NCBI RefSeq assembly: GCF_057098645.1
Contig: NZ_CM169472.1
Strand: one strand, 5' to 3'
Length of the DNA stretch: 64,000 bases
Positions 27,626 through 45,219 of the stretch are shown piece by piece (within the stretch, counting starts at the first letter, position 1; each line of letters starts with the position of its first letter). The notes beneath the pieces were generated by a model, which saw only the letters and a list, made by a program, of their open reading frames with translations, searched no databases and was not told the DNA's origin. The position numbers were made by a program, and so were the translations under genes.

Positions 27626-29012
27626 TGGTTGCCTCTGGCGCAGTTTGCGGTGATGCCGTTCCCGGGAATGGATTGCCAGTGCGGGGACTGTGGAGCTTAA
27701 TTCCGGTGTTGGTGGCCTTTCCGTTGATTTTGAGCCAACAGCCCTCCTGTGACTGACAGGCTGCCTCGTCATTCCATACGTATCTTCAGGTGAACAGATG
27801 CATGTCTGAGCGTACTCACGCAGCCGGCCCGGCAACCGCGGTGGTACTACGCTGGCTGCGAGAAAATACAGAAAGCACCAGAATACGCTCTCCTGTTGCT
27901 GATCAATCAGGATCTCATGCACCTACCGGGATCTAGGGCTAGAACTGATGAAACCGATTCGCACCTGGCTGAGTTAATGCTACAGGCCAGGGCATCACTA
28001 CCCCCTGACGAGCACTGTACTGTGGTATGCAGTTACAGGGGGCGTGTGCAGCCACACCTGAAAGCAGTGAGTCGTTCACGGCATTCAAAAACACGTGCCT
28101 TTCGTTCGCCGTTCCTGTGATGGCCGGCATCATTTGCTAAGCCGTTACCGACGTTATTCCCTCCGGGACACGCCTCTGGTTGAGGCTTTGCCCGGAGCAA
28201 TCGAATGAAAATAAGTTAAGTCACCGAAAGGGAGGATGTAGTCAACCGGGGGAACAGTAATAAGCCGTCGTGCTTTTATCGTACAAGTGTGTTGCGTTTT
28301 GCACCGAAAATACGATAGAGGTCGTTTATGGATTCCGCAGGGAGTGCTGATTATTATTCACTGGCAGCAGACAGCGATGTGTGTGCAGGCATTCAGGGGG
28401 ATGTTGTCAGCAGAAGGGTGCGTATAGCAGATTGTTGTTATACATGGCGTATGAAGTATTACCAGTCATGCGGAGTAGTGTGGTGAGGGGCTGTATGAGA
28501 AATCGCCACCTTCTTGTCAGAGAGGGAACGCTACCATGAAAGTCAAAAGCGATAACGCAGACCGGTACGATCGGTAGGTAAAACTGTAGCGGTGTGCTGC
28601 CGCCGAGGTCAGAATAATCTGCGCGTTTTTACGCCAGCGCCACCGACGAACAGCAGGAGATTGAGGGGAATTTGGCGGCGATAAAGACGTAGAAGAGAAA
28701 AACGGGCAATTTGCCGCATGCCCACAGAATCAGTGAGATCGTTAGCGACAGCAAAATGATCGGCAGCCAGCGGCGGCCTGCAATATCGGGATGAAGGAGA
28801 TCCTACGATATCGATGCTGCACCTGATATGTACGATCAGTAAATAGAGTACGAAACAGCAAACACGACGATAATAACGCTGGCAGCGGTGCCTGTCAGGC
28901 AAACGCCCACACGCAATAAAATAAATCAACCATCGCAGGGCCGTGATCATCCGCATACACCGCTGATGACGCGTCTAAAAACGCGTCAATATGACTTCCC
29001 CGGAACATTACC

Positions 29013-30254
29013 TCATTTCAGGGTATGGAGAATTTTTAACATCGAGTTATCTATGGTCTGTTTGACTTTTTCGTAATAGATCGGTTCAGATAATGACGAA
29101 TCCCAGGTATGAATATCGTTCTTATTAAAAGGAATGCATTTCATGGCTACTGCCTTTAACTGTTTCCCTTTTTGCTCATACTCATTGATATCATTAATGG
29201 TAAATTTCAAACTCTCTTTTCTTGCTTCTGTTATTTCAGTTGGGCATACCAGCTTTATATCTCCTAAGGTAAATGTACTGACCCCGGTGATGAAAAATCT
29301 CTCGGGGATTTCTGTATAGTGCCGAGTATTCCAGATTAAGCCATTAAACATACTATGAGAATGAGTTTTATTTTCGATATAATACTGATGCGTTCTCCAG
29401 TCACTAATGCCTGAGAGACTCATTACCATATTAATGATCATATTTGGGATAGGGCGATACCACATACTGAATACAGTAATTACAACTGGTATGCATATTA
29501 AAACAACTATGAATCCAGTGAATTTATCACCATTTCTGCGCTCATTAAGATGTATGGCACCAGGCAGAATGCCAATAGTAACAATAGCTGCTGTTAAGGC
29601 AAGGAGCATTAGCATTTCAACCAAATCACTTGTCTCCTCACTAAAATCAAGTTGGGTAAGCAGAAATAACATAGGTAATATTTGAACGATCCCGGGAGTC
29701 ATAAATTGCAAGGGTAAAAAACATAACAATCCTGGTTTTCTTGGTAATTTCTCATAGTTATCAGATTTATGCCAACTAAATCTCTTTGTTTTAAATAGAT
29801 TAAAATAGGATACAAAATAACTAAAAGCAAGCATCAATACAAAACCGGTGATACTTATGGAATAACCATTCCATCCATAAAGATAGTAAATATAGTAGCC
29901 AACAATTATACTACAGCATATAAACAAGCTATTTAGATAACAAACAGTGGAAATTCGATGTGGTATGCTTGGATAATTTTTGAAATTATCTTCATGTAAT
30001 GTGTAAATGAGGATTAGAATAAAAGAGGAAATGAAAATTACTAAGCTAAACCCAGAAAACGATACTATTATAAAAACAAAAATGATACCTATGGCTGAAC
30101 TGAGGCTTACAGTATCAAAGAAAATATCTAATCTATCTATGTTTGACAGATAGAACCATATAACAGCCATTGTGCATCCAGTAATAAATGTAGATGAGGT
30201 TATTACTGAAATAATGAATTTTTTATTCAACAGCTTTATGACAGATTTATTCAT
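29013..30254 (-). CDS. AT-rich orphan gene: multi-pass membrane protein (about 8 TM) with a roughly 150 aa C-terminal soluble domain
   Basis: 413 aa ORF with strongly A/T-biased codons, unlike the surrounding DNA; hydrophobic helices through about aa 260; no recognisable catalytic motif. Confidence 0.65.
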   Translation of the reverse strand: MNKSVIKLLNKKFIISVITSSTFITGCTMAVIWFYLSNIDRLDIFFDTVSLSSAIGIIFVFIIVSFSGFSLVIFISSFILILIYTLHEDNFKNYPSIPHRISTVCYLNSLFICCSIIVGYYIYYLYGWNGYSISITGFVLMLAFSYFVSYFNLFKTKRFSWHKSDNYEKLPRKPGLLCFLPLQFMTPGIVQILPMLFLLTQLDFSEETSDLVEMLMLLALTAAIVTIGILPGAIHLNERRNGDKFTGFIVVLICIPVVITVFSMWYRPIPNMIINMVMSLSGISDWRTHQYYIENKTHSHSMFNGLIWNTRHYTEIPERFFITGVSTFTLGDIKLVCPTEITEARKESLKFTINDINEYEQKGKQLKAVAMKCIPFNKNDIHTWDSSLSEPIYYEKVKQTIDNSMLKILHTLK

Positions 30255-30884
30255 AATCCGAATTCCATACCTGATAAAATTCGTATTGTAGTGAGGACCG
30301 ATTTTTTGAGCAACTTATAACCATCGCTTAAAGCTACTTGCTACCATACATGCCGTTATCCCGAACCATAAAGCGCTTGGCAGTAACACCAACATCACAG
30401 ACAGATACTGCGGTTGCGCCAAATAAAAGAATGGCGGATAAGGTCGGCGGATTGCAACGTGATGCTGTGCTGTAGGATGACTTCTGCGGTCTCGTCCAGC
30501 GCCAGCCACTCCTGGCGGATTTTGTGTGGGGGCATGGTGTGTTCCTTTTTGTGTTGTTGGTTGCGTATAGTGCTTGTTGATGATGAAAACCGGTGTGAGA
30601 TATTTTTGCCAAAACAACTAACACTGATCAGTGTAGGTAACGAGCTTTTCAGACATAATATGGTGATGATTTACACTGGAAAAACAGGACGTAACACTGA
30701 ATAGCTCTGGAGACGATTTGCTTGAAGTGGCGTGCTATTTGTTGAAAGAAGAATTTCTGATGATACCTTATTTTAAAGGAGGCTAAAGGGAGAGGAGAGA
30801 GCCCTGTTGAAATCAACAGGACTTAATAGCTCCTCTCCGAAGGGCAAGGAGATCACCCGTGCGCCTGGTTAGGTGAAGAAGTAC

Positions 30885-40480: not shown

Positions 40481-41371
40481 TCAGGCTGCCAGATCATCGT
40501 TTCCGATGGAAGCATAATAAGCTTTTTCTGCTTCTGCCGGAGGAGTATGGCCCAGCCTTTCCAGCAATCGTCGATTGTTATACCAGTCCACCCACGTGAG
40601 TGTGGCCAGTTCCACTTCTGCACGGTTTTTCCAGCTCTTACGGTGTATTACCTCCGCTTTGTAAAGACCATTGATGCTCTCCGCCATCGCGTTGTCATAC
40701 GAGTCGCCTGTACTTCCTGTTGATGCCAGTAATCCGGCTTCCTTAAGCCGCTGTGTGTAGGCCAGCGATACATACTGAGAACCTTTATCACTGTGATGGA
40801 CCGTGCCGGACGGTCGACGGGCCCATAACGCCTGCTCCAGTGCATCCAGCACGAATGTCGTCTCCATGGACGATGAGACCCGCCACCCCACAATGTATCC
40901 GGCAAACACATCAATGATGAACGCCACATAGACGAAGCCCTGCCATGTGCTGACGTAAGTAAAATCAGCCACCCACAGCTGGTCAGGTCGTTCTGCCACG
41001 AACTGACGGTTTACGCGGTCGCCTGCGGCAACGGCTTTCCGGCTGATGGTCGTACGGACCTTTTTACCCCGGAGAACACCGGCAAGTCCCATAACCGCCA
41101 TGAGACGTGCCACAGTGCATCTGGCCACTCTGATACCTTCCCGTAACAACTGACGCCAGACTTTACGCACACCGTATACCTTGTGATTTTCATCGTATAC
41201 GCGCTGTATCTCTTTCTTCAGCCAGTCATCGCGCTGCGCACGGGCACTGCGTTTATCCGGATGATGTCGCTGTTGCTGACAGTGGTAATACGTTGACGGG
41301 GCAATATGCAGTTCGCTGCATAGCGGTCCGACCCCGTACTGCTCACGCAGCTTATCCAGCAGTGGCATCAT
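40481..41371 (-). CDS. IS629 OrfB
   Basis: Identical 296 aa translation to 18174-19064. Confidence 0.9.
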
Positions 41372-41694
41372 TTTTTCCAGAGGCGGTCGAACTCCGCCTT
41401 CGCAAAATAAGCGGAAGCCTGGCGAAGGATATCGTTACTGCGGCGCAGTTCACGATTTTCACGCTCCAGCTCTTTCAGACGCTGACGTTCAGCGGTGGTG
41501 AGCCCTCCATCACCGCCCCCGGTATCCCGCTCATGCTGGCGAACCCAGACACGCAGAGTCTCCGGCGTACAGCCAATCTTTGGAGCAATGGAACAAATTG
41601 TCGCCCATTGTGAGTCATATTCGCCCTGACTTTCCAGAACCATACGGACTGCCCGTTGACGGACTTCAGGGGAAAAACGAGTATTTTTAGTCAT
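41368..41694 (-). CDS. IS629 OrfA
   Basis: Identical 108 aa translation to 17851-18177. Confidence 0.9.
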
Positions 41695-41745: not shown

Positions 41746-42156
41746 TCAATCAGTGTTTACTTCCCTGGCCTCGCTACCATTGGTATAGCTACTACAGTCT
41801 TCATCACTGCCACGCTCATTCTCACAGACATGTTTCTCGACCTTTCCAAGATATCTGACGCCTTTTCGCGGAATGGTTTTAATTAGAGAACTCGACAAAC
41901 CAGCGATGTCTAATGCCTTTCTAAGCATGTAAATCTGCCCATAATAACTGCTGTCGCTTACCGAACCTTTCTGCTCCCGCCAAACCTCATTGATAATATG
42001 TTGCTTATCGGATTCTCCCTGTAGTAAAAGGAGTAAAAATCGATAGCCGTTTTCAGACAGATTAATTACATTGCCTGTACTGGTGGTGATACGTCGAGAC
42101 GCTGGGTAAAACTTAACTCCCTGCCCTAAAGAAAAATAAAAACGGTCATCGCTCAT
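41746..42156 (-). pseudogene. ToxR/CadC-like winged-helix (OmpR/PhoB-type) transcriptional regulator, N-terminal 136 aa; 3' end truncated by IS629
   Basis: ...NGYRFLLLLLQGESDKQHIINEVWREQKGSVSDSSYYGQIYMLRKALD...IKTIPRKGVRYLG... winged-helix pattern; the stop codon is the IS629 terminal TGA. Confidence 0.55.
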
Positions 42157-43500
42157 AAGTACCGAACCCTGTTTTCTTCTTCACATGACTACTCATTACA
42201 ACTTTGTATGAAGTAAGATGCAAAATCATATTGTTTACATTAAGTTAAGCAATTATACCGTTTAAACAAAGACAATACGTCTCTTTATTTCTCATAAAAC
42301 CCCAATCCCTTACAGGGCTTATTGAAAATTTAAAAATCACAAATTTCTCAATACTAAAAATGAGATCACATAAGAAATCAAAAAACCTTCTCATCTATTT
42401 TAAGTTTTCCCAACGTAAAATAAGAGCTTTTATTAATAACTGAACCACTTTACTGTTCTATTTGTTCAGGTATTGTATTACGGTGTGCTGAGATCCATAG
42501 GTGCATCCCTGTATCCCGCGATGAGACTAAAATAGTCGTGATTTAAGCTCGTATCAGATTCTTAGTGAATACCACATTTGTTATAATTAAGTGAAAAGAT
42601 ACATTGCTGATTTACATTTTTTGGTTTACAAAATGTCATCACTTACAGAGTTATCGCTGACATATACCTTTAATCTCTTAATCCTTTCGTGTTATTGCAA
42701 TACAACCATCCATAAAGCAGGCTATTTTTAGCAGGAAATACTCAGGTGTCAACATTCGAACCCCAACCCTGAAATATTCATATAAATTAATGATTTTTTC
42801 ATTTATTCACACCTAATCAAAGTATTCAAATTCAGATGATTTTTCTGCTCAACAGACACAAACAGGCAATAATACTCTCCAAAGCGAACAATATTTGGCA
42901 TTACGATTTAATGCTTCATAATCACCAAATCATTTAACTATAAATTTTCTTATTTTTAACGAAATGGTTGGTGTTTTTTTGGAATTAAAAACATACATAA
43001 TATTAACATCTACCGACATTTCACTTTCCGAAAGACGAATGATTTCGAATCCTCATCTACGTTCTCCCATCCCAAATATCTTTATTAATAGGCAGTACGA
43101 ACACTGTTATAGCAAGATTACCTTATTAACCTAATGGAATCCTTTATGTAACAAGTGAAAATAAATTCCTTAAAATTGATTCTCAGCAAATCTTAAAAGT
43201 TCTCATTATTCTGCAAAATCAGCTTTGCGAATAATCTTATGTTTTTGGGAATTTTGATCTGCTCATTGCTCTCGTGAAAAATACAAACAAGAGAAAAAAC
43301 GCCATTCGTCATGAAAAGAACAGACGTAGCAATGTAATAACATACTAAAATTGATCTCATGAAAGTGGGTGCTTTATAACCAGCACAGAAGCTCAGACGT
43401 ATAAATATTAAACAATTTGCATTGTAAAACGGAGACTATGTATTAAGAAGCCAATCGTAAAAACGGTTCCCTGGCGAGATAAACGACAAACAAATGGAAA

Positions 43501-43527
43501 GCCGGATGATATTTACCTTCATCCGGC
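43501..43527 (-). terminator. Hairpin downstream of glcA (terminator candidate)
   Basis: gccggatga...tcatccggc inverted repeat immediately 3' of the glcA stop; weak T-tract. Confidence 0.35.
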
Positions 43528-43536
43528 ATTATTGAC

Positions 43537-45219
43537 TTACGAAACTAACATCCCGGTAAACACATACGCCTGCAACAGCGTGATAATGCCGATAACGCTG
43601 GCAAAAATCAGACTGTGCTTCACGGTGTAGCGGAACAGTTCAGATTCTCGGCCCACCATGCCCGTCGCGGCGCAGGCCACGGCGATAGATTGCGGGGAGA
43701 TCATCTTGCCAGTTACGCCGCCGCTGGTATTTGCTGCCACCAGCAGAGTGTCAGAGACGTTGATTTGCTGCGCCGTGGTCGATTGCAGTGAACCAAACAG
43801 GGCGTTTGAAGAAGTGTCCGAGCCGGTAAGGAATACCCCCAGCCAGCCGAGGAACGGTGAGAAGAACGGGAACATCACGCCTGTACCTGCCAGTACCAGC
43901 GCCAGCGTGGTGGACATGCCGGAATAGTTGGTGACGAAGGCGAACGCCAGCACCATGCCAATCGACAATATCGGCCACTTCAGACTAATTAGCGTTTCGG
44001 CAAAGACGCCAATCCCTTTCTTGATGCCCACGCCGAGGATGAAGATAGAGATAATCGCCGCAATAAAAATAGCGGTGCCGCCAGCCGAGAGGGGGTCGAA
44101 TTTAAACACCGCATCCATTGGCGTTGGTTGGGCGACAATGGGTGCCGCTTTCAACACTTGTTGATGCAAATGAGGGATCTGGAAATTAATCACCAGTGAA
44201 TAAAACACGCCGCCCGGAGCAAATAACGCTTTAAACGGCTTCATGGTCCAGATGGTGACCAGCACCGTTAAGATTAAAAACGGTGACCACGCTCGAATGA
44301 TTTGCCCCAGACTATATTCTGAAGGCACTGGACCGCCAGAAGATGGCTTATTTACCACCATCGCACCTGCGGATTGTCCCATGCTGATTGCCGTTTCGGT
44401 ATTTTTCGGCCGCCAGACTTTAAGGAATAAAGCGAGTGAGACGATACTCACCAGCGCCGAAGTAATATCCGGCAGTTCCGGACCAATATAGTTAGAGGTA
44501 AAGAACTGAGTGACAGCGAAGCTTCCCCCTGCAGCCAGCGCCGCTGGCCACGTCTCTTTCACCCCTTTCCAGCCGTCCATCATTGCTACCAGCCAGAACG
44601 GCACAAGAACCGACAGGAACGGTAACTGACGTCCTGCCATAGCACCAATGTGGAACGGATCGATTCCCGTTACCTGACCGGCGACCAGAATCGGCACGCC
44701 CAACGCACCAAACGCCACCGGCGCAGTATTGGCAATCAGACACAGCCCCGCCGCGTATAACGGTTTGAAGCCCAGGCCCACCAGCAGCGCACCAGTAATC
44801 GCCACCGGGGCACCAAAGCCAGCCGCCCCTTCCAGCAGCGCGCCAAAGGAGAAACCAATCAGTAACACCTGCAAACGCTGATCGTCAGTGATGGAGATAA
44901 CCGAGCTGCGGATAATATCGAACTGCCCGCTGGCAACGGTTAATTTATAGAGGAACACCGCCGCGACAATAATCCACGCTATTGGCCATAATCCATAAAT
45001 AAAGCCATAGCCCGCAGCAGAAAATGCCATATCAATCGGCATTTTAAAGACGAATATCGCAATCAGGAGAGATAATATAAGGGTTATTGCTCCGGCAACA
45101 TGTCCTTTCAGACGTAATACCGCGAGTGCAACGAAGAAGAATATTATCGGGATCAGGGCGACCAGAGCGGATAGCCCCAGTCCTCCCATCGGCATATACA
45201 TTTGGGTCCAGGTAACCAT
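43537..45219 (-). CDS. glcA: Glycolate/lactate permease GlcA
   Basis: 560 aa LctP-family permease; position downstream of glcB. Confidence 0.9.

Follow-up and report, generated by a model that had tools for sequence, protein, structure and literature searches.

The window analyzed here is a 64,000-nucleotide (64-kb) stretch of E. coli DNA. It contains glcA, the core gene for the glycolate permease, and next to it an AT-rich interval, the remaining part of a regulator gene, and an insertion element. The features of the locus, listed by position in the window, are:

40481-41694, minus strand: IS3-family element with orfA (108 aa) and orfB (296 aa), containing HTH_Tnp_1 and rve domains
41746-42156, minus strand: 5′ 136 codons of the gene for a ToxR-like (PypB-type) membrane-anchored winged-helix regulator, truncated by insertion
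42157-43536, no strand assigned: AT-rich interval without ORFs, from glcA to the regulator gene, 32% GC
42157-42385, minus strand: proximal part of the interval, delimited by similarity to related loci and presumed to hold the promoter/operator and 5′ leader of the gene for the PypB-like regulator
42252-42257, minus strand: perfect TATAAT hexamer that lacks a good −35 element, read from the sequence
42280-42293, minus strand: conserved purine-rich block GAGAAATAAAGAGA, approximately 125-137 bp upstream of the ATG codon, identified in a six-locus alignment
42386-43497, no strand assigned: distal AT-rich "orphan" spacer, 32.6% GC, for which neither a homologue nor a coding or RNA signal was detected
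43498-43530, minus strand: intrinsic-terminator hairpin of glcA, GCCGGATGA-N9-TCATCCGGC, identified as an inverted repeat and in the alignment with K-12 and ECNB21-M121
43537-45219, minus strand: glcA, given as context, from the annotation of the identical sequence in RM12761

The limits of the interval are exact. The regulator ORF starts at position 42156 and the minus-strand glcA ends at 43537, which leaves 1380 bases with a longest ORF of 56 aa. The preliminary description of an ORF-free, AT-rich region of about 1.4 kb between glcA and a truncated ToxR-like regulator is accurate in its coordinates, and the region lies directly upstream of the regulator gene, as had been claimed. The truncation is also real: the full-length regulator has 201 aa, of which 136 codons remain in the window, cut by the IS3-family element. 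Residues 29-99 of the regulator resemble an OmpR/PhoB-type winged helix weakly (Trans_reg_C, E 5e-5), with a score of 23.7 bits that falls below the Pfam cut-off of 26.2 bits. The C-terminus of the full-length protein forms a hydrophobic anchor. Judged against the intact or longer loci of other strains, the element at 40481-41694 replaces the rest of the regulator gene and the whole Tad operon, and no pilus gene is left at this site.

Composition and coding content of the interval

The GC content of the interval is 32.2%, compared to 51.6% for the 64-kb window, and the corresponding A+T contents are 67.8% and 48.4%. The 1-kb stretch with the lowest GC content in the whole window starts at position 42211, within the interval. 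The many A/T tracts that had been described are present, with 34 tracts of at least four bases, and TpA steps are twice as frequent as in the window. The absence of ORFs of 60 aa or more, which had been presented as a characteristic of the interval, is a real but ordinary observation. Such ORFs are also absent from 53% of 1000 composition-matched shuffles, in which the longest ORF averages 61 aa. The lack of ORFs is therefore no more than expected by chance from the composition. The genuine anomalies of the interval are its composition and its length of 1.38 kb.

The short repeats mentioned in the preliminary description were not substantiated. Tandem Repeats Finder detects no tandem repeats in the interval at its lowest threshold. 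Dispersed and inverted matches are confined to short pairs of copies with identities of 74-92%, and the two-copy matches of 18-27 nt with 74-83% identity are at chance level. The one exception among the inverted matches is a 12-nt stem at 43498-43530, which belongs to the terminator hairpin.

No coding signal was detected in the interval. Six-frame translation identifies no Pfam family even at E ≤ 10, and a search of 5.8 billion protein clusters with the concatenated six-frame translation is likewise empty at E ≤ 10. A tblastx comparison of the interval with 55 related loci gives no match at E ≤ 0.1, and the sole match at E ≤ 1 is 32 aa long with an E-value of 0.87. The period-3 power of the interval is 0.3-3.1 times the spectral mean, whereas that of glcA is 8-35 times the mean. 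The three longest mini-ORFs (55, 56, and 49 aa) are all disrupted, by a stop codon or a 1-bp indel, in natural variants with an intact pilus locus, and no genes are called in the interval by independent annotations. Neither of the two marks of a pseudogene, residual protein similarity (frameshifts included) and codon periodicity, was found. A remnant of an integrase, like that of the related locus L010/L011, was considered and rejected, as tblastx gave no match; any other decayed gene was rejected on the empty six-frame Pfam and protein-cluster searches. The interval is non-coding.

The glcA flank and the Tad island

In the alignment of the glcA flanks of the window and K-12, identity spans the 3′ end of glcA and the terminator hairpin, which reads AAGCCGGATGATATT-ACC-TCATCCGGC at 43498-43530, and then collapses. 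The position of this break indicates that a variable segment begins directly past the glcA terminator, and that the remaining approximately 1340 bp of the interval are alternative cargo. In K-12, the genes yghJ(sslE)-pppA-yghG-yghFED are located between glcA and pheV. The preliminary description had proposed that the interval could be the decayed remnant of a deleted locus, to be checked by alignment with an intact sslE/type II secretion locus. It is extremely improbable that a deletion in that locus left the interval behind as a residue of its genes or its regulatory region. The interval does lie in the chromosomal slot that contains sslE in K-12, and its AT-richness is comparable. However, the similarity to K-12 is lost immediately past the glcA terminator, which indicates that the interval is not a remnant of sslE. 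A sensitive blastn search against the 16-kb K-12 locus recovers only 44 bp at the hairpin and nothing beyond it, and tblastx against the whole K-12 locus from yghD to glcA gives no match. Furthermore, the sequence of the interval travels with a Tad island.

Of 5426 complete E. coli genomes, 42 carry at least part of the interval and 36 carry its full length. It occurs in one copy per genome, always in the chromosome, with an identity of 97.4-100% and a length of 1380-1392 bp. No match was found in plasmids or phages. A mobile element, repeat, or MITE was rejected as an identity of the interval because of the single copy per genome, the lack of plasmid and phage matches, and the absence of internal repeats. 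The preliminary description had set its readings against the case of an untranscribed intergenic region of identical length in other strains; the alignment part of this case holds nearly, with 1380-1392 bp in 36 other genomes. None of the E. coli records that carry the interval has an annotated feature under it.

In every genome with the interval, glcA is followed by the interval, the winged-helix gene, and then the genes for Flp pilin, prepilin peptidase, CpaB, and secretin. The gene order regulator-flp-tadV-cpaB-rcpA is intact in some strains. Strain PapRG-06-5 has a complete Tad locus that extends as far as tadG, with a TcfC-type usher cluster and a type VI secretion locus after it. The Tad locus of O145:H28 strains is truncated past the secretin-proximal genes by an IS3-family element. 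In other strains, IS1 or IS3 insertions spare just the glcA-proximal 109 or 312 bp of the interval. The exact IS junctions of the locus in the window occur in none of the complete genomes.

The window differs from PapRG-06-5 in 5 of 1380 positions of the interval, 3 of 411 positions of the regulator fragment, and 43 of 1683 positions of the adjacent glcA, which corresponds to divergences of 0.36% for the interval and 2.6% for glcA. In strain GDSC2227PM, the differences from the window cluster in 43242-43489, which is consistent with a recombination joint. The GC content of the Tad operon is 42.6%, compared to 54.4% for the glc operon. The rarity of the interval and its low divergence beside glcA point to both an association with foreign genes and horizontal acquisition. 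By its gene context and distribution, the interval is identified as the non-coding upstream DNA of a rare, horizontally acquired Flp/Tad pilus island, carried by less than 1% of E. coli genomes. A literature search yielded no report of a Tad locus beside glcA in E. coli.

Regulator family, proximal region, and distal spacer

Homologues of the regulator are distributed across Enterobacterales, including Intestinirhabdus, Enterobacter soli, Mixta, Hafnia, Serratia, Budvicia, and many Yersinia. The identity is 41% to the homologue from Y. ruckeri and 38-40% to other Yersinia proteins. The database of 5.8 billion protein clusters contains no homologue with an identity of 64-95%, which suggests that the lineage from which E. 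coli acquired the island has not been sampled. In 30 of 30 fetched related loci, the regulator gene is followed by tad genes on the same strand. PMC10269533 lists PypB of Y. enterocolitica and Y. ruckeri among transmembrane transcription regulators, with the expression of Flp type IVb pilin as its target. The pypB-tad loci of Yersinia share with the locus of the interval a homologous regulator with an N-terminal winged helix and a C-terminal membrane anchor, the position of this regulator directly upstream of flp-tadV-cpaB-rcpA, and long (0.5-1.7 kb) AT-rich gaps upstream of it. In contrast, the upstream DNA of the Yersinia loci cannot be aligned with the E. coli interval. PypB reportedly activates the tad operon, as attributed to Schilling and colleagues in 2010. 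The position of the interval, directly before a PypB-family gene that precedes flp/tad genes, fits that of a PypB-type control region.

The gaps upstream of the regulator in its relatives, measured between ORFs of at least 100 aa, are approximately 0.3-1.7 kb and all long, and they exceed 1 kb in Budvicia, Leminorella, Pragia, Y. aldovae, and Y. pekkanenii. In these relatives, the GC content is 23-40% for the 400 bp that precede the regulator, compared to 37-52% for the loci. Cross-genus similarity among the upstream regions is limited to roughly the proximal 540 bp. The presence of long AT-rich upstream gaps in all relatives suggests that a long AT-rich leader is a trait of the regulator family, and that its distal part is free to turn over.

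Only the proximal 150-230 bp of the interval align with related loci, and only with the closest ones. The blastn alignments obtained with relaxed scoring have an identity of 61-64% and a length of 330 bp for E. soli and 247 bp for L010. They begin in the first codons of the regulator gene and extend approximately 150-230 bp upstream. The most conserved non-coding columns of the six-locus alignment (about 272-290) correspond to the GAGAAATAAAGAGA block, which is a candidate regulator-binding or −35-proximal element. In the six aligned sequences, a T-rich run comes after the block, and then −10-like hexamers and a Shine-Dalgarno sequence. The TATAAT hexamer at 42252-42257 is a candidate −10 element that would give a leader of approximately 90 nt. 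It is not reported by the two-hexamer promoter scan, and a −10 hexamer without a good −35 element may reflect the pattern typical of activator-dependent promoters.

Beyond position 42385 or so, no alignment of the interval to any sequence was obtained by blastn or tblastx, the glcA terminator aside. The conservation of the distal 1.1 kb within the species is uninformative about constraint, because the E. coli copies are 97.4-100% identical. The distal part might be the residue of an upstream gene that has decayed completely, although this origin is doubtful. The leading candidate is the divergent LuxR/GerE-type regulator of the closest loci outside E. coli. I. alba, E. soli, and the metagenomic contigs L009 and L012 encode a divergent GerE/LuxR-type HTH protein of 179-201 aa, and its gene lies upstream of the regulator at a distance of 380-470 bp. 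The E. coli spacer could thus be what remained after the loss and erasure of this gene. In E. coli, a 46-aa ORF on the right strand has its GTG start 435 bp upstream of the regulator, and its N-terminal part has a weak tblastn match to the E. soli protein (12/35 identities, with an E-value of 0.09 that refers to a search space of 1.7 kb). Successive stop-free stretches in frames +3, +2, and +1 extend over 42591-43134.

However, a profile HMM of the four LuxR/GerE-type proteins gives 0.9 bits for the interval, compared to 0.6 ± 1.5 bits for shuffles. A frameshift-tolerant alignment of the profile to DNA scores 30.0 on the plus strand and 35.8 on the minus strand, with a null distribution of 29.6 ± 3.6. 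The same method recovers the gene of a relative with 50% of its bases replaced and eight indels in 15 of 15 trials, and in 10 of 15 trials at 60% replacement. The results of tblastn, the profile HMM, and the frameshift-tolerant alignment are all at the level of shuffled sequences, and the LuxR/GerE gene was rejected as a candidate. The interval also lacks 3-base periodicity and has no counterpart among the 5.8 billion protein clusters. Moreover, the close relative L010/L011 is likewise without a LuxR-type gene and has an integrase 630 bp upstream instead.

The preliminary description had also raised the possibility that the interval hosts small RNAs or micro-ORFs. It is improbable that the interval encodes unannotated small RNAs or very small proteins, whether restricted to the island or contained in a long regulatory leader transcript of the regulator gene. 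Spurious promoters are frequent in AT-rich foreign DNA. The 120-nt window at 42260-42379 on the minus strand has a folding z-score of −3.5 in the scan, and of −2.8 when a stretch of 161 nt is refolded. The 46-aa ORF at 42591-42731 is invariant in the five variants compared. Nevertheless, folding z-scores average −0.33 across 68 windows of 120 nt, both strands included. The stable fold at 42260-42379 is not conserved: RNAalifold finds zero consensus pairs in the six-locus alignment, and the test of RNA conservation has low power because the E. coli copies are nearly identical.

A search of Rfam at E ≤ 10 gives five matches with E-values of 1.2 or higher, all far below the gathering scores. They are noise matches to eukaryotic snoRNA and miRNA models and to a Listeria antisense RNA, and known RNA families were rejected on this result. 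The best terminator-like hairpin of a lenient scan has an energy of −9.1 kcal/mol, compared to −8.8 ± 2.7 kcal/mol for the best hairpin per shuffle, and a consensus scan identifies no intrinsic terminators inside the interval. Small proteins are opposed by the interruption of the 55-, 56-, and 49-aa ORFs in strains with an intact pilus locus, and no six-frame segment resembles any predicted protein. The interval has no family match, no promoter combined with a terminator, and no conserved structure, by which a small-RNA gene could be recognized.

Silencing and function of the interval

The yghJ/glcA intergenic region of K-12, which is 484 bp long and has a GC content of 30%, is listed in Table 1 of PMC3661553 as a "promoter island" with H-NS bound in every ChIP study compared. 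H-NS/StpA also repress the sslE promoter (PMC5012682). The interval and the K-12 region share the slot immediately past the glcA terminator, a similar GC content (32% and 30%), and their orientation, each preceding the gene that opens a foreign surface or secretion locus. In contrast, the two have no sequence similarity, and the interval is approximately three times longer (1380 vs 484 bp). Promoter-like sites are not over-represented in the interval, unlike in the K-12 promoter island. Furthermore, the binding of H-NS is a ChIP result for the K-12 region and a prediction for the interval.

The two-hexamer promoter scan identifies four sites in the interval, compared to 6.8 ± 2.8 expected, and the number of −10-like hexamers is 20, compared to 28.4 ± 5.2 expected. 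Since promoter-like sites are, if anything, below expectation, the label of a promoter island is not earned by these proxies. The site density over at least 300 bp that characterizes promoter islands in the definition of the Ozoline group is not reached in the proxy scans, which differ from PlatProm, the algorithm that defines such islands. The high-affinity motif of H-NS, TCGATAAATT, is not enriched in the interval. The helical-phase power of AA/TT in the 10-11.5-bp band, examined as a sign of curvature or phased A-tracts, is 1.88, compared to 1.30 ± 0.30 in dinucleotide shuffles. This signal is marginal, as 4.4% of the shuffles reach 1.88. The interval shares with H-NS-silenced DNA a high A+T content over hundreds of bases.

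Long AT-rich regulatory DNA of acquired islands is bound by H-NS upstream of virF, ler, bgl, and proU. The interval resembles these regions in its A+T content far above the host average, its horizontal acquisition, and its position upstream of an island-encoded regulator of a surface structure. It differs from the virF, ler, bgl, and proU regions, which have mapped H-NS sites and counter-silencers, and its operon is deleted in this strain. By its composition and the analogy with the K-12 site, the interval is probably coated by H-NS. No paper on H-NS control of tad operons was found in the literature. Among the three readings offered in the preliminary description, that of a large, putatively silenced regulatory region is the best supported, but the conservation with related loci is confined to the proximal 150-230 bp.

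We consider it fairly probable, at about 65%, that the interval is the leader of the acquired Flp/Tad island, composed of a promoter/operator and a spacer, and silenced by H-NS. The non-coding nature of the interval and its membership in the island are much firmer parts of this explanation than the role of H-NS. The interval would consist of approximately 40 bp of core DNA with the glcA terminator, an AT-rich spacer of approximately 1.1 kb without homologues, and the proximal 150-230 bp with a control function. The proximal part would carry the promoter/operator and leader of the PypB-type regulator, the first gene of the regulator-flp-tadV-cpaB-rcpA series, in an island that, in a small minority of E. 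coli, takes the slot beside glcA where sslE and the type II secretion genes are normally found. An A+T content of 68% over 1.3 kb in a host with 51% GC may result in coating by H-NS/StpA, which would silence the regulator and pilus genes until the proximal promoter receives a counter-signal. The AT-rich stretch may also buffer the island from read-through of the co-oriented glc operon. The binding of H-NS, the position of the promoter, and the insulating role are predicted properties of the interval.

It is conceivable, but unlikely, that the orphan 1.1-kb spacer functions in cis as an element specific to the island, one that determines whether the regulator and the Tad pilus are on or off. 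Such an element might take the form of an extended platform for H-NS nucleation or insulation, or of the template of a long non-coding leader. If this is true, long AT-rich leaders would be a selected trait of the regulator family across Enterobacterales and not neutral filler.

In the strain studied here, the IS3-family element has left 136 codons of the regulator gene, which suggests that the interval, as the leader of the acquired island, is now a vestigial control region with nothing to control. With the regulator truncated and the operon gone, the question of silencing is moot in this strain. The significance of the interval is small, as the locus that it controlled has been deleted by insertion sequences. 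Annotators can take the 1.4-kb gap as truly non-coding, and not as a missed gene. The interval adds one example of a long AT-rich region, probably coated by H-NS, that fronts an acquired locus for a surface structure. The glcA flank holds one of two mutually exclusive islands, either sslE with the type II secretion system or the Tad pilus with the usher cluster and type VI secretion system. Both islands begin right past the glcA terminator, each with its own AT-rich leader, and the glcA flank is a convenient natural test bed for studying the xenogeneic silencing of alternative cargo.

The Tad island between glcA and pheV in E. coli

In E. coli strain PapRG-06-5 (L016 1-20000), the slot between glcA and pheV holds the following, in order: a complete Flp/Tad pilus locus, a TcfC-type usher cluster, and a type VI secretion locus. 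The Tad island occupies the slot instead of sslE and the type II secretion system in this strain and in 35 other genomes, which together constitute approximately 0.7% of complete E. coli genomes. We found no paper in the literature on a Flp/Tad pilus locus positioned at the glcA-pheV slot of E. coli.

The AT-rich spacer separating glcA from the truncated PypB-like regulator gene was compared with that of strain GDSC2227PM. The glcA-proximal 250 bp of the spacer (43242-43489) are about 10% divergent from the window, and GDSC2227PM has a 9-bp insertion at window position 43242. The other 1085 bp differ at just seven positions. This distribution of differences has the appearance of a recombination joint within the spacer.

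Genes surrounding the spacer

Features on both sides of the spacer, in window coordinates:
28609-30617: second AT-rich block, with three minus-strand ORFs of 115, 413, and 100 amino acids
38798-40441, plus strand: chimeric ORF of 547 amino acids
about 48177-49400: equivalent of glcF (L001 15021-16242; L074 13021-14242)

The glycolate oxidase operon adjoining the spacer may be non-functional in the O145:H28/O145 lineage, because glcF is annotated as frameshifted in these strains (L001 and L074). The N-terminal portion of the 547-residue ORF is an IS66 transposase, with leucine zipper, zinc finger, and DDE domain up to profile position 143 of 284, joined to a CdiA fragment composed of DUF637 and a PT-VENN pre-toxin domain. 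This organization suggests a contact-dependent inhibition toxin gene interrupted by an IS66 insertion.

In the second AT-rich block of the window, the GC content over 1 kb is below 0.38; a gentisate/3-hydroxybenzoate (mhb) gene cluster lies directly to its right. The three ORFs of the block have no matches in Pfam.

Tad loci of non-E. coli relatives

Features of the related loci:
L005 7025-7603; L007 7013-7618; L009 851-1420; L012 687-1226: divergent gene for a 179-201-residue protein
L010 2850-4145; L011 1723-3018: P4-type tyrosine integrase, lying 630 bp from the regulator on its upstream side

In the closest relatives outside E. coli, the divergent gene is found upstream of the PypB-like gene, at a distance of 380-470 bp; E. 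coli lacks it. The only domain of its product is a C-terminal GerE/LuxR helix-turn-helix, and no match to a receiver domain was found in the four proteins. The protein could be an uncharacterised co-regulator of the relatives' Tad loci.

The Tad island of one metagenomic relative (L010/L011) adjoins mutS. This position, together with the P4-type integrase upstream of its regulator, suggests that Tad loci of this family move as an integrative island.
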